Shown here piece by piece: positions 2,859-7,767 of a stretch of 10,359 bases of DNA. The notes under the pieces were generated by a model that was given only the letters and a program-made list of their open reading frames with translations, searched no databases and was not told the DNA's origin. The stretch lies in IMG/VR virus record IMGVR_UViG_3300000357_000164. One strand, given 5' to 3'. The DNA is from a virus. Lineage: Duplodnaviria; Heunggongvirae; Uroviricota; Caudoviricetes. A program made the translations under genes and the position numbers. Every line of letters begins with the position of its first letter. The first letter of the stretch is position 1.

Positions 2859-2934
2859 ACCCCGTCTCCCGTTATCCGGAAGCTCACAACAATATAAAGA
2901 CCACCGGCACACACCGATGGTCCCTTGCGCAGGC

Positions 2935-3180: not shown

Positions 3181-3315
3181 GGGATTTTCTCGTTGAAAGG
3201 TGTTGTCAAGAAAGTGACTACGGAATNNNNNNNNNNNNNNNNNNNNNNNNNNNNNNNNNNNNNNNNNNNNNNNNNNNNNNNNNNNNNNNNNNNNNNNNNN
3301 NNNNNNNNNNNNNNN

Positions 3316-3479
3316 TCGGGTTTGCTTCCGGCTGACTGACTGGCGCTGATTCTCTCAGCGGCCCTTTTATCAATCTGCCTGCGCCAGAAATCGCGCACTG
3401 CCCTGTACCCACCCGAAAGAAGATACATAACACAGACTGCCATACAGAAGTACAGCATTACCTGATGAATAAATGTCAT
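3316..3479 (-). CDS. small membrane protein, 3' end lost in masked block (partial)
   Basis: ATG at 3479. N-terminus MTFIHQVMLYFCMAVCVMYLLSGGYRAVRDFWRRQIDKRAAERISASQSAGSKP has one TM helix followed by a basic segment. The ORF runs into the N block 3227-3315, so the true stop is unknown; the in-frame continuation after the block overlaps the acidic ORF and is probably not real. Confidence 0.4.
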
Positions 3480-3577
3480 AATTTCTTACCGTTATGGTTG
3501 ACAATGAGAACTGTTTTCATTTAGAAATGATTGATGTCGAAAGCATCTTTTCTTTACATTCTCCATTGGGATTACCT

Positions 3578-3615
3578 CCGCCAGCTTCCATTCCTGCCGC
3601 TGGCGGCTTTTTTTA
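3578..3615 (+). terminator. intrinsic terminator-like hairpin oriented for plus-strand transcription
   Basis: Perfect 8-bp stem CCGCCAGC (3578-3585) / GCTGGCGG (3599-3606) with a 13-nt loop, followed on the plus strand by CTTTTTTTA. On the minus strand the hairpin is preceded, not followed, by the A/T run, so it is unidirectional (plus). It sits immediately 3' of the nanS-p stop. Confidence 0.5.
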
Positions 3616-5745
3616 TCATGCCGCGATGTCCGCGTTGTTCACTTCCACCTTCACACTGTCAATCAGCAGCGTATATGTCGCCGCCTTTGATATGCCTGTC
3701 AGTTGCAGTTTGTCCGCCGCCCCTGATGCCGGAGATTTCACCAGTGTGAACGGCGTCCCCCGTTTCTCATCCAGTACCGGCGTCACCTGAATGCTGTTGT
3801 TTCCGGCAAACTCAAAAGCCAGTGTGTGCCATCCGTTATCAAAGACCCCGAACGTTTCCAGCTTCGCATTCGGCTTCTTGTGGTGCATCGCGTTCAGGTT
3901 CGTCGCATCCGTCTGCAGAAAGAAGGACATCAGCATGTCGTTGCCTTCCTCTGCCAGCGTCACTCCCTCNNNNNNNNNNNNNNNNNNNNNNNNNNNNNNN
4001 NNNNNNNNNNNNNNNNNNNNNNNNNNNNNNNNNNNNNNNNNNNNNNNNNNNNNNNNNNNNNNAACTGCCAGTAAATGCCCAGGGCAAACTGATTCGGCAC
4101 CAGTGAACCCGGCAACTTAAACCGTACGCTCACACGTCCCCCCTTCTTCAGTAACTCCACTCCCTGTCCGGCTGCATCATGCTCCAGAAACCAGATGTGG
4201 TTTTCCGGTTTATTCAGTTGCAGGGCCTTACCTCCCGTAGCCCCCGCATCACTGACCACCGCTTCAGCAATGTTTTTGTTAACATTGTCTCCGCTCGCCG
4301 GTTTGTGATAATAGCGCCAGCCCTGTGATGCCAGGTCTTCGCCGGACGCCAGCAGACTCATCAGGGTTCGGTTACTGACCGGGGCTTCCGGCTCTCTCTC
4401 CGTACCTTCACCGGAAGGTCCGGTGGGCTTCACCGTATCAGGCTGTTTTCCGGTAATGAATTCAGCGTTTCTCCCGGCATGCACAAGAATCGCCGTTGCC
4501 AGACGGTCGGAAATAATCCCACGACGTGCCCATGATCCAAAATGCGTTTTACGGTCAGCCGTCGTCCAGGTTTTGGCGTCCGTTCGACCACCGGCTCCGT
4601 AATACCCAATATCCGCAACATCCGGATCTTCTGACGGCTCGTTGGTACCCACATTTCGCCCGTTTTCATCCGTCATAAACGGCACAAAGAAGNNNNNNNN
4701 NNNNNNNNNNNNNNNNNNNNNNNNNNNNNNNNNNNNNNNNNNNNNNNNNNNNNNNNNNNNNNNNNNNNNNNNNNNNNNNNNNNNNNNNNNNTGCGGATTT
4801 CGTCTTGTATGCACCATACACCGCATCGTATTGCGAAGAATAAGTCTGCTTCCAGTAGTAGGTCGTGTCGCCACAAATCCAGGGAACCGATGACGGAGAG
4901 CCCCCGAGACACTGACCTCCGAATTCCGACAGGTCAGAACGATATTTTTCCACCATGGAATCAAACAGCCCCGGCTGGGTGGCGTATGCACCCTGTTTCA
5001 AATCAAACTCGCCCTGCATCCAGACCACTGCAAGCAGAATATTTTTAGGGTTGGCCTTCAGTGCGGCCTGAGTACGGGTAAGCAGGTCCTTGTACAGTGG
5101 CTTATCTACACCCCAGCGTGCCGAGGTCTCGCTTGCGCCGGTGGATTCGCTGAAGGTACCTTCATCGCCCGCCAAAAATGCAGAACCACCACGGCAGCAC
5201 GGAACCAGAAGAATACCGGCATTCGCCGGAATAAACGGCAACAATTTCTTCGCGATATGTAATCCCTGCCCCACGCATCCATACTGAGCTGCACTGGCTT
5301 TCGGGTGTGAAAACTTACTCAAATCCTGAACATCATGCAGGCAGTGGTCCGCAGGAATAATGTCATTGTAGTTACAGAACGCACCACCCGGCGTGACAGT
5401 GCTGCGACGCGCCAGCTGTTTAATACGCGGGTCCGGACGGTCATATGTCTCCGGCAGCGGAAGCCCTTCACCATACGCCATACCGTTTGACTGCCCGGCC
5501 AGGGCAACAACAAAGTAATACTCCGGGTTGCTGGTGGTGCTGATAACTGCGCCTTCTCCATCCGACGGCTTCACCACCACAGGTGTGGTGACATCACCTT
5601 CCGCCGCAATGGCCTGCATCAGGGTATAAGGCGTGATGGCCACCGGACTGCCAAATGGCTGCCACCCCTCCTTCAGTTTTTGTGTCAGTCGTTTCGCAAG
5701 GTCTGACGGCGATGCCGCCCTGACAACATCATAGTGTTTAAATGC
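3616..5745 (-). CDS. nanS-p: NanS-p-type phage sialate 9-O-acetylesterase (SASA/DUF303 esterase domain with C-terminal lectin-like region), interrupted by masked blocks
   Basis: Large minus-strand coding region with the SASA esterase GQSN motif (VALAGQSNGMAYGEG) and surrounding similarity to prophage NanS-p/YjhS-like esterases as recalled. The N-terminal part (AFKHYDVVRAASPSDLAKRLTQKLKEGWQPFGSPVA) resembles the DUF1737 region. The start lies inside N block 5746-5849. The coding frame differs on each side of N blocks 4693-4791 and 3970-4062 (three track ORFs: 4666..5964, 3960..4991, 3616..3963). Stop TGA at 3616-3618. Confidence 0.8.
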
Positions 5746-6017
5746 NNNNNNNNNNNNNNNNNNNNNNNNNNNNNNNNNNNNNNNNNNNNNNNNNNNNNNN
5801 NNNNNNNNNNNNNNNNNNNNNNNNNNNNNNNNNNNNNNNNNNNNNNNNNATTCTTTAAAATACCTGACATGTAATACAGAAAAAACACAAAACCATACCT
5901 TAAATAAAAACCTCATCATCAAGCAGATATGCATGGATAAACTACAAGACGAGATATAAACCACCCTGCATTTAAATAAACAATAAACAACATCAGAAAA
6001 ATAATTCTGCTCTATGG

Positions 6018-6044
6018 TTTACATTCAAAAATATCATTTATACT
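6018..6044 (+). promoter_or_regulatory. sigma70-like promoter candidate (TTTACA-15 nt-TATACT) upstream of plus-strand small ORF
   Basis: -35-like TTTACA at 6018-6023 and -10-like TATACT at 6039-6044, in very AT-rich DNA about 40 nt upstream of ATG 6085. The spacer is 15 nt, which is short, so this is a hexamer match only. Confidence 0.35.
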
Positions 6045-6084
6045 TTTCAGAACATCACCAGCAAGACATAAACAAGGAAACTAA

Positions 6085-6245
6085 ATGAAGTGGATTGTGA
6101 TTGATACAGTTATCCAGCCATCATGCGGAATATCTTTTTCAGTCATATGGAGTAAAATAAAATTAATAATCTGGTATCAATCGGATGCTTTCTTACCTCC
6201 TGAAAGTATATTTACACTGACTCACACAGGTATCATGCTCAATAA
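6085..6245 (+). CDS. small hypothetical protein on the strand opposite the late operon (partial; runs into masked block)
   Basis: ATG at 6085 with SD AAGGA (6074-6078, 6-nt spacer). Translation [53 protein letters not shown]... continues into N block 6246-6336; the track ORF ends at 6348. AT-rich codon usage with 5 ATA codons in 53. Confidence 0.4.
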
Positions 6246-6475
6246 NNNNNNNNNNNNNNNNNNNNNNNNNNNNNNNNNNNNNNNNNNNNNNNNNNNNNNN
6301 NNNNNNNNNNNNNNNNNNNNNNNNNNNNNNNNNNNNTGCTACCTGTAACCATTTACAACGTAGCACCATTCAATAAAACATTCTGGAATTTAATCAAAAA
6401 CAGCCAGGAATGTCCTACAAATACAGATAACGTATTGAATGAATGCTTTAATAACCGTTGCACTCTGCAAATATG

Positions 6476-6509
6476 TCCTTATGGACTAAAACAACAAAGT
6501 CCATAAGGA
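6476..6509. repeat. perfect 12-bp inverted repeat with 10-nt spacer (hairpin or palindromic binding site)
   Basis: TCCTTATGGACT (6476-6487) and AGTCCATAAGGA (6498-6509) are exact reverse complements; spacer AAAACAACAA. No clean U-tract follows on either strand. Confidence 0.6.
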
Positions 6510-6521
6510 GTTTACTCACAT

Positions 6522-6562
6522 CTGACAAAATCAATATAAACAGCCCCTCCGGAGAGGGGCTG
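6522..6562 (-). terminator. rho-independent terminator for minus-strand transcription
   Basis: Perfect 9-bp GC-rich stem CAGCCCCTC (6541-6549) / GAGGGGCTG (6554-6562) with a 4-nt loop. On the minus strand the hairpin is followed by TTTATATTGATTTTG (complement of 6522-6540). Confidence 0.55.
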
Positions 6563-6883
6563 GAGAGTGGCGCTATGTGCCATTGCATGGTGCCGGGTGC
6601 CTCCCGGTGAATTCAGTACCAGCACCTGAATCCGCGATTATCCCATATACCTACTCGCTGATTGCCCCTCCGCACNNNNNNNNNNNNNNNNNNNNNNNNN
6701 NNNNNNNNNNNNNNNNNNNNNNNNNNNNNNNNNNNNNNNNNNNNNNNNNNNNNNNNNNNNNNNNNNNNNNNNNNNNNNNNNNNNNNNNNNNNNNNNNNNN
6801 NNNNNNNNCCCCGCAAACCAGACAACAGTCAACCGCCTGAATTGTGAAGTATTTAAAAATTTCTCCCGCTAACTGATACCCGG

Positions 6884-7404: not shown

Positions 7405-7517
7405 TACTTAACAGAACTTTTATTTTTGACAAACATAAAATATTTTCAACAATATCCTGAGCCAGGTATATTTCAGTATAAGGCTCTGCCGGAAGGAATC
7501 TGGAAGAATGAATATAG

Positions 7518-7591
7518 CGCGCTGTACTGGATTCGAACCAGTGACCGATTGCTTAGAAGGCAATTGCTCTGTCCGGCTGAGCTAACAACGC
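7518..7591 (-). tRNA. tRNA-Arg (anticodon UCU), phage-borne; 3' CCA not encoded
   Basis: Minus-strand sequence GCGTTGTTAGCTCAGCCGGACAGAGCAATTGCCTTCTAAGCAATCGGTCACTGGTTCGAATCCAGTACAGCGCG folds as a cloverleaf: 7-bp acceptor stem with one G-U, D arm GCTC/GAGC, anticodon loop CTTCTAA, T arm with GGTTCGAATCC. It resembles E. coli argU-type tRNA. The discriminator is followed by CTA rather than CCA. Confidence 0.85.
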
Positions 7592-7691: not shown

Positions 7692-7767
7692 TGGTGGCCC
7701 TTGCTGGATTTGAACCAGCGACCTGGCGATTATGAGTCGCTCGCTCTCACCACTGAGCTAAAGGGCC
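7692..7767 (-). tRNA. tRNA-Ile2-like (anticodon CAU, ileX/ileZ-type; could formally be Met)
   Basis: Minus-strand sequence GGCCCTTTAGCTCAGTGGTGAGAGCGAGCGACTCATAATCGCCAGGTCGCTGGTTCAAATCCAGCAAGGGCCACCA (76 nt, CCA encoded) is near-identical in architecture to E. coli ileX tRNA as recalled. Anticodon loop CTCATAA. Confidence 0.88.

Follow-up and report, generated by a model that had tools for sequence, protein, structure and literature searches.

This work concerns a short plus-strand element (positions 3498-3615) in a 10,359-nucleotide (nt) stretch of tailed-phage DNA, the IMG/VR virus record IMGVR_UViG_3300000357_000164 (Caudoviricetes). The whole stretch is hereafter called the window. It represents the late region of a lambdoid prophage, which is transcribed from the minus strand. 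The order of features on that strand begins with DUF968, RusA, the antiterminator Q, two transfer RNAs (tRNAs), and an STnc100/PasD-like RNA with a terminator. It continues with an esterase of the SASA/nanS-p type, the element, DUF1378, DUF826, a P21-type holin, lysozyme, and Rz. The element occupies the 136-base-pair (bp) gap between the nanS-p-type esterase and the DUF1378/lysis genes and is antisense to the late operon. The most fitting assignment is to the PasC/EcOnc51-52/PasA class of prophage small RNAs (sRNAs), as an allele not described before, and not to a new kind of RNA.

The esterase gene runs leftwards on the minus strand and closes with a TGA stop codon at 3616-3618 (tca on the plus strand). 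The end of its open reading frame (ORF) is at 3616, colinear with CP026723, and its start codon is masked by a run of N at 5746-5849. Its C-terminus matches DUF6645, and RefSeq genomes with the identical sequence label it "SASA family carbohydrate esterase". The next gene of the late operon, DUF1378 (about 3218-3479, minus strand), was recognized by its Pfam match (DUF1378, E = 1.7e-31) together with RefSeq annotation and coordinate mapping on CP026723. It spans the N-run 3227-3315, and its ATG (3479-3477) is 18 nt away from the -35 hexamer of the opposite strand. Positions 3316-3700 are 100% identical to many Escherichia coli (E. coli) chromosomes in RefSeq, where the flanks are annotated as SASA esterase and DUF1378 family protein. 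The corresponding gap in VT2-Sakai, VT1-Sakai, and several hundred Shiga toxin (Stx) phages shows about 84% identity to the same segment. The N-runs of the window (n = 12; e.g., 3227-3315, 3970-4062, 4693-4791, and 5746-5849) do not preserve length, and 89-104 N stand where the near-identical CP026723 has 8-28 bases only. Lengths of ORFs and coordinates of genes are therefore inflated wherever they cross such a run.

Predicted promoter and terminator signals in the gap

A preliminary description of this DNA had pointed to a TTGACA hexamer followed, after 18 nt, by TAGAAA. Direct reading of the sequence bears this out. The -35 hexamer TTGACA (3498-3503, plus strand) agrees with the consensus at 6/6 positions and forms part of the predicted sRNA promoter. 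The -10 candidate TAGAAA (3522-3527, plus strand) is weak and A-rich, and TTAGAA offers an alternative at a 17-nt spacing. Taken together, the segment 3498-3527 combines a 6/6 -35, a spacer of 17-18 nt, and a 4/6 -10 by sigma-70 standards, and -10 sequences of the same kind occur in sister alleles that are expressed. A sigma-E promoter (GAACT...ATTGA) was also considered and rejected, as its bases vary among alleles.

The same description had reported a plus-strand terminator with an 8-bp stem and a U7 tail next to the nanS-p stop codon, and this structure was recovered with RNAfold. The stem is formed by the 5' arm CCGCCAGC (3578-3585) and the 3' arm GCTGGCGG (3599-3606), which enclose a 13-nt loop, UUCCAUUCCUGCC (3586-3598). 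The residues that follow were read directly. C3607 precedes the U7 tract (3608-3614), which is the predicted termination site and a likely Hfq-binding tail, and A3615 is the single nucleotide between this tract and the nanS-p stop codon. The U7 tract is outside the esterase coding sequence. The hairpin, with 7 G-C pairs among its 8 bp, is both the minimum free energy structure and the centroid structure of 3570-3615. Its energy is -15.1 kcal/mol (z = -4.4), a value equalled by 0/200 dinucleotide shuffles of this segment. The arrangement expected of an intrinsic terminator, a G+C-rich stem followed within 2 nt by at least 5 U, is found at 3578-3614. A scanner for consensus terminators reports the 5-bp/3-nt sub-hairpin at 3594-3606 alone, and terminator-like matches are frequent across the window (17 vs 8.5 expected in the terminator scan).

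The predicted sRNA, AUGUCGAAAGCAUCUUUUCUUUACAUUCUCCAUUGGGAUUACCUCCGCCAGCUUCCAUUCCUGCCGCUGGCGGCUUUUUUU (3534-3614, plus strand), is about 81 nt long. Its 5' end is placed by analogy with PasA, PasC, and EcOnc52, and its 3' end is the U-run. In comparison, PasA has 85 nt and PasC 79 nt, and the peaks of EcOnc51/52 have 77-78 nt. As had been noted before, the ORF list of the window contains no credible plus-strand gene upstream of the terminator. The plus-strand ORFs 3494-3790 and 3531-3749 cross the terminator and continue antisense into nanS-p. By itself, a single sequence of this sort is suggestive, not decisive. The case for more than chance rests on conservation rather than on the single sequence.

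Conservation and probable kinship with prophage small RNAs

For the comparison, 80 IMG/VR loci were retrieved with the last 249 residues of the esterase alone, so that the hairpin was not used. Enough downstream flank was present in 77/80, which comprise about 35 distinct sequences. All 77 informative loci carry TTGAC[AT] at 110-133 nt from the esterase stop (TTGACT in one allele), TA(G/A)AAA 17-18 nt further on, and the stem CCGCCAG/CTGGCGG. In all of them, the T-run is directly followed by A and the esterase stop. Conservation of the hairpin and of TTGACA in related prophages had been named as a check in the preliminary description. The RNA body, on the other hand, falls into about six sequence types, one of which (L031 and L065) is unrelated to the others and has core stem arms 40 nt apart. 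The column profile shows complete conservation of TTGAC, the 3' arm, and the T-run, whereas adjoining columns fall to 50-80%. Since L031, L067, and L075 retain TTGACA despite a different upstream flank, membership in the DUF1378 leader does not explain its presence.

Base pairing was compared across 40 distinct elements, 34 of the window type and 6 of the Pas/EcOnc type, including PasA, PasC, and EcOnc51/52. The stem core GCCAG/CTGGC is identical in 40/40. The pair outside the core is C-G in 34/34 window-type elements and A-U in 6/6 Pas/EcOnc elements. The first inner pair is C-G in 34 elements, U-A in 2, U.G in 2, and mismatched in 2; where a second inner pair forms, it is G-C in 10 and A-U in 6. 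The spacing between the core arms varies between 13 and 40 nt in other alleles. Every allele has a T-run of at least 5, mostly 6-9, after the stem and always on the plus-strand side. Since U.G pairs form in the plus-strand RNA only and the T-run is on the plus-strand side, a plus-strand transcript is indicated. Within the window-type family, the loop motif TCCATTCC is kept in most alleles, and the 7-bp core CCGCCAG/CTGGCGG is invariant in 20 aligned sequences. RNAalifold predicts the 7-bp core stem alone for this family, with no conserved 5' structure.

The composite pattern TTGACA-N60-90-CCGCCAG-N11-41-CTGGCGGYYTTTTT has 5 matches in 596 Gb of species-representative genomes, and none of the 5 has BLASTN similarity to the window. 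A scan of the same genomes with the esterase C-terminus gave no relatives, and the element is absent from other taxa there.

The position is known as a site of sRNA genes. An arrangement pasD - sialic acid esterase - pasA/pasC - holin/lysozyme has been described (Zhu, Shabalina and Storz, bioRxiv 2026). PasA (NC_011601.1, 743499->743415) has 85 nt and a minor form of 236 nt, and PasC (NC_011601.1, 1290909->1290832) has 79 nt (Pearl Mizrahi et al., PMC8550237 Table S6). Both RNAs of enteropathogenic E. coli (EPEC) E2348/69 are antisense to their neighbours ("> < >"), are confirmed by Northern blot, depend on Hfq for stability, and have many partners in RIL-seq (RNA interactions read by ligation and sequencing). 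They are abundant and were detected in uninduced cultures, with many unlinked partners (PMC8550237). The same study gives EcOnc51/52 as homologues in enterohaemorrhagic E. coli (EHEC). EcOnc51/52 (EHEC Sakai Sp12/Sp4) were found as Hfq peaks of 77-78 nt with predicted terminators by cross-linking and analysis of cDNA (CRAC) (Tree et al., PMC4104026). They also occur in hybrids obtained with RNase E by cross-linking, ligation, and sequencing of hybrids (CLASH), which include the terminator and U-run. In the EcOnc52 reads, the loop, 3' arm, and U-run are joined to fragments of messenger RNAs (mRNAs), and the sRNA part of one hybrid consists of the loop and 3' arm (PMC5286369).

The boundaries of these sister RNAs fit the layout of the window element. 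The ends of PasC and EcOnc52 abut the stop codon of the orthologous esterase, and the last U of PasC is 1 nt from it, as in the window. A perfect TTGACA ends exactly 30 nt upstream of the mapped 5' ends of PasA and PasC and 28 nt upstream of the start of the EcOnc52 peak. A distance of 28-30 nt between TTGACA and the 5' boundary is that expected for a start site. By the 30-nt rule taken from PasA/PasC, the window RNA would start near A3534 and measure about 81 nt. The sister -10 sequences are TCAGAA in PasA/PasC, TGAAAA at 17 nt in EcOnc52, and TAAAAA or TAGAAA at 17-18 nt in other alleles. The Hfq signal of EcOnc52 was retained even though IS629 replaced everything upstream of its TTGACA, which argues that this unit has its own promoter. 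As to function, the PasA seed GCCAGCACCU overlaps the 5' arm of its terminator (Zhu et al.).

Some prophages hold two such units in tandem. In E2348/69 PP2 (L002, 2366-2635, minus strand) and Sakai Sp12 (L006, 917-1193, plus strand), a PasA-type unit is followed by one of the EcOnc51/52 type. The second unit is equipped with a TTGACA of its own, and its terminator adjoins the esterase stop; the 236-nt form of PasA is readthrough to this second terminator. The coordinates of EcOnc51 shift by +136 between NC_002695.1 and NC_002695.2. Therefore, EcOnc51 is the esterase-proximal unit of Sp12 and not the PasA-like unit upstream of it.

Several features that define the class are present in the window. 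The element sits in the slot between esterase and lysis genes, on the strand opposite the late operon, and the GCCAG/CTGGC stem-loop at its 3' end has a U-run against the esterase stop. Sequence and distances also fit a TTGACA about 30 nt before the 5' end of an RNA of about 78-85 nt, with the 5' end in the window being predicted. The whole element gave global alignment scores of z = 5.8 with PasC, z = 4.7 with EcOnc52, and z = 4.0 with PasA, and 0/500 dinucleotide shuffles reached the score. Its flanks align with the PasC locus (AAATG.CA.AAT.TCTT upstream, TTTTTTTAT.ATGC downstream). A covariance model built from 20 window-type sequences (R1) scores 3535-3615 at 105.6 bits, the window being in the training set, and recovers the divergent alleles L031 and L065 at E = 0.005-0.012. 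A search of the whole window against Rfam 15 (E <= 1) found nothing at 3498-3615, and only the tRNAs and a sub-threshold STnc100 elsewhere. When the hairpin sequence of both strands was looked for in full-text literature, written as DNA and as RNA, no match was obtained. The published Pas and EcOnc surveys did not report the sequence version of the window, in which promoter and terminator are kept and the body is exchanged. We read the element as a probable positional orthologue with a diverged or exchanged body, i.e., a new allele of a known class and not a known RNA. The label "orphan", which the terminator had been given in the preliminary description, has to be dropped, since a known Pas/EcOnc class occupies the same slot.

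Proposed function and competing explanations

The reading that we favour, with a probability of roughly 70%, is that 3498-3614 is a self-contained sRNA gene in the lambdoid late region, transcribed against the late operon. A sigma-70 promoter with a perfect -35 and a weak, A-rich -10 would start transcription near A3534. The 8-bp GC hairpin and U7 would stop it at 3610-3614, 1 nt before the nanS-p stop, yielding an RNA of about 81 nt, as the sequence and the sister RNAs suggest. The promoter would be independent of the Q antiterminator, and the RNA would thus be made in the lysogen. Judging from published work on sister alleles, the U7 tail and the U-rich stretch CAUCUUUUCUUUACAUUCUCC would bind Hfq. 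Terminators of Hfq-binding sRNA genes typically have at least 7 T (PMC5558911). By analogy with PasA/PasC and EcOnc51/52, the RNA may target host and prophage mRNAs in trans. Pairing could involve the invariant 5' arm (GCCAG, overlapping the PasA seed), the loop UCCAUUCC, or UCUCCAU, a single-stranded segment; the latter two are conserved. A role of the loop in pairing is speculation. The preliminary description had left the choice between an sRNA of 80-90 nt and an insulating terminator. The comparative evidence favours the former, and we infer expression of the window version from its sister alleles.

Several observations weigh against the sRNA reading. The -10 TAGAAA is poor, with a 4/6 match and without the conserved final T; because of the missing T, the site is not listed by the consensus promoter scan. 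The loop of 13 nt exceeds the typical 3-8 nt and is long for an efficient intrinsic terminator. The invariance of the 7-bp core gives no covariation support within the window-type family (RNAalifold). BLASTN, megablast, and blastn-short with PasA, PasC, and EcOnc51/52 gave no meaningful match at the window locus (the BLASTN-type queries also included the 236-nt form of PasA and PasD2). Conversely, R1 does not recover PasA, PasC, or EcOnc51/52 at E <= 10. Class membership therefore rests on position, architecture, and short common motifs. Moreover, Northern data suggest that the mature 5' end of PasA comes from cleavage of a longer transcript (Zhu et al.). If so, the analogy for the start site is weakened. 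The literature search found no transcript data on the window allele, and no EcOnc appears at the matching Sp5 gap (esterase/ECs1210) in Table S2 of Tree et al. (PMC4104026). The filters of Tree et al. (>100 bp from a coding sequence, or antisense to one), together with the duplicate copy in Sp15, may explain the absence from Sp5.

In Sakai Sp5, nanS-p (ECs_1207) is interrupted by IS629 (L087, 4004-5313; NC_002695.2, 1270503-1271812). The window-type element of Sp5 follows the 3' fragment ECs_5706 and precedes ECs_1210, which may have affected the classification of peaks in earlier screens. A window-type copy was also sought in the E2348/69 prophage PP4, for use with the EPEC RIL-seq tables; PP4 has no esterase.

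It is unlikely, although the best of the alternatives, that the RNA works in cis as an antisense regulator of the late mRNA, as lambda OOP does, a role that does not exclude action in trans. After induction, pairing would lead to mRNA cleavage, which would uncouple the esterase from the lysis genes or adjust the timing of lysis; in a variant, convergent transcription would interfere with late transcription. The RNA is indeed fully complementary to the late mRNA between nanS-p and DUF1378/holin, its gene is wholly within the late operon in antisense orientation, and its promoter is 18 nt from the DUF1378 start codon of the opposite strand. The 3' ends of the adjoining esterase genes E2348C_0688 and E2348C_1246 are among the RIL-seq partners of PasA, and OOP is a precedent of 77 nt in lambda and Stx phages (table in PMC12197685). 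However, the predicted RNA (3534-3614) starts 55 nt from the DUF1378 ATG and overlaps neither a coding sequence nor a ribosome-binding site, and the sister RNAs are detected without induction and with many unlinked partners. RNAduplex runs against eight late-gene start regions gave nothing beyond shuffled controls, in a crude screen whose energies looked unreliable.

A second alternative retains the terminator only. It would block stray plus-strand transcription into nanS-p, with TTGACA being incidental and the short RNA functionless. The exact abutment on the stop codon, the weak -10, and the reliance on analogy for expression of the window allele speak for it. It is nonetheless improbable given that TTGAC[AT] stands at a fixed distance in 77/77 loci, even where both flanks differ. 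The 5' boundaries of three sister RNAs fall 28-30 nt after TTGACA, PasA and PasC being abundant and Hfq-dependent. Besides, the promoter scan shows no other plus-strand promoter upstream that would need insulation.

Still less can be said for a role of the hairpin in the late minus-strand mRNA, as a stabilizing stem-loop at the nanS-p 3' end, a processing site, or a late-strand terminator; we consider this very improbable. The invariant stem cannot tell the strands apart because its arms read alike on both, and a similar stem (CCGTCAG...CTGGCGG + T6) exists on the late strand upstream of holin in E2348/69 and Sakai prophages. On the minus strand, however, A7 comes before the hairpin and AGGUAAUCCC after it, so that it is no intrinsic terminator there. 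All alleles have the T-run on the plus-strand side, in minus-strand RNA a C.A mismatch would replace the U.G pair of L077 and L083, and the conserved -35 is left unexplained.

The late-strand stem itself is nearly identical to that of the element and lies beyond the PasA/PasC-type promoter in L002 (2734-2763, plus strand), L003 (1045-1074, plus strand), and L006 (788-817, minus strand). It stands just before the holin gene in L002 and L006, and R1 matches it in part (13 bits, E = 0.59).

A small protein is scarcely credible, whether from ATG 3534 on the plus strand or from minus-strand ORFs of 24 codons starting at 3594 and 3566: such open frames exist in the window and ATG 3534, being the predicted RNA start, would make a leaderless message, but most alleles lack this ATG, and no stop codon precedes the terminator in its frame. 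Indels of 1-4 nt between alleles break the minus-strand frames; compared with Sp5, the 3594 frame goes out of register at a 2-nt indel, and the 3566 ORF has 4 codons in that prophage.

Distribution, meaning, and relation to named systems

The window-type element is present in 947/5,426 complete E. coli genomes, about a sixth, at 1,993 places, vs 692 genomes for the PasA-type element. The window-type allele is therefore at least as widespread as PasA. Among 30 listed complete-genome records, sampled with a spread, 0/30 have an annotated feature under the match. The element also occurs in 305 phage records, mostly Stx-converting phages, including VT2-Sakai and VT1-Sakai, and related versions adjoin stx. 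The exact window sequence comes mostly from human isolates, several of which are named uropathogenic strains.

The published Pas census was made by BLASTN with five query sequences of E2348/69 and found Pas genes in only 43 phage genomes. It was concluded that PasD is mostly alone and that those prophages had lost PasA or PasC (Zhu et al.). An approach based on BLAST cannot detect the window-type allele. The window holds the PasD/STnc100-like RNA, the esterase, and the element together, and probably at least some "PasD alone" prophages carry a window-type allele. Recognition of this allele would revise the conclusion of PasA/PasC loss for many PasD-bearing prophages and complete the map of regulatory RNAs around the Shiga toxin/lysis region. 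Prophage sRNAs of pathogenic E. coli (AgvB, AsxR, StxS, Esr41, Pas) rewire host regulation, including virulence and iron genes.

More tentatively, and with rather more doubt than confidence, the locus could be seen as an exchangeable sRNA cassette. The TTGACA promoter, the GCCAG/CTGGC core, and the U-run at the esterase stop would be fixed and the body and loop swapped, the window version being an unrecognized regulator. There would be at least six to eight types, namely several window-type bodies, the large-loop L031, PasA, PasC, and EcOnc51/52. Target specificity at this one locus would then differ between related prophages, and a close relative of the window version would be such a regulator in the Sakai Stx2 phage and in the 305 phage records. 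An additional cis effect of the window RNA, where nanS-p and the lysis genes meet in the late transcript, is conceivable, and the "PasD alone" prophages may have a window-type allele instead of a loss of PasA/PasC. The natural alleles of the locus lend themselves to the question of how an sRNA acquires new targets with its promoter and terminator kept.

Other features of the window were recorded in passing. The STnc100-like RNA (6530-6703, minus strand) matches Rfam RF02076 (E = 2e-6) with 41.4 bits, which falls short of the gathering score (47); an N-run masks its 5' part, and its terminator hairpin is at 6541-6562 (minus strand). Position and strand are consistent with the short PR'-tR' transcript of the StxS/PasD/STnc100 group upstream of the esterase. 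A plus-strand ORF (6085-6348) occupies the moron slot between tR' and the esterase, within an AT-rich segment (about 5850-6530). Up to the N-run, it agrees in 53/53 residues with a protein annotated as anti-adapter IraM in CP026723, with no Pfam match. The tRNA genes at 7517-7591 and 7692-7767 (both minus strand), for Arg (TCT) and with a CAT anticodon (ileZ-like), are downstream of Q on the late strand. The pair resembles the ileZ-argN-argO cluster of Stx phages, and a third tRNA may be masked. A hairpin of 13 pairs (2896-2925, minus strand), with a T-rich run after it (AGGGACCATCGGTGTGTGCCGGTGGTCTTT ATATTG), stands between DUF826 and holin and reaches into the beginning of the holin ORF. It may serve as a terminator or regulate the translation of holin.

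In the reviews searched, no sRNA is given at the position of the element, and the named phage sRNAs differ from it to varying degrees. Lambda PreS is located elsewhere, between ea10 and ral. Lambda OOP, a 77-nt RNA with its own promoter and terminator, is likewise transcribed against a phage operon. In contrast to the window RNA, which overlaps no coding sequence, OOP is a cis-acting RNA that covers the cII 3' end, and there is no sequence relation. The anti-sRNAs AgvB and AsxR (RF02702/RF02703) are also short Hfq-binding RNAs of the lambdoid late region, antisense to the late operon, and their alleles have a conserved 3' part and a variable 5' part. They are shorter (51-60 nt) and lie on the other side of the esterase, between stx or the moron gene and nanS-p. 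Their models gave no match in the window at E <= 1 (Rfam 15).

The sister RNAs of the same slot are much closer. PasA (EPEC PP2, with a PasA-like unit in Sakai Sp12) shares the promoter type, slot, orientation, and GCCAG core in the 5' arm. Its own terminator, however, is about 150 nt before the esterase stop and is followed by an EcOnc51-like unit, whereas the window has a single unit. Of the PasA seed, which pairs with CUGAUGCUGGC-like target motifs, GCCAGC alone is shared with the window, which reads CCGCCAGCUUCC. EcOnc51/52 resemble the element as esterase-proximal units with TTGACA upstream and a terminator abutting the esterase stop. They differ in the body and in the stem, GCCAGCG/CGCTGGC with an A-U pair outside the core, and have no Northern result in the table of Tree et al. 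(PMC4104026). PasC (EPEC E2348/69 prophage PP5) differs in the body, the loop, and the base of the stem (A-U vs C-G in the window), and it is validated by Northern blot while the window RNA is predicted. It shares with the window element the slot that separates the SASA esterase stop from the following late gene, the antisense orientation, the TTGACA geometry, the GCCAG/CTGGC core, the U7 tail, the spacing of 1 nt to the stop, and the aligned flanks.

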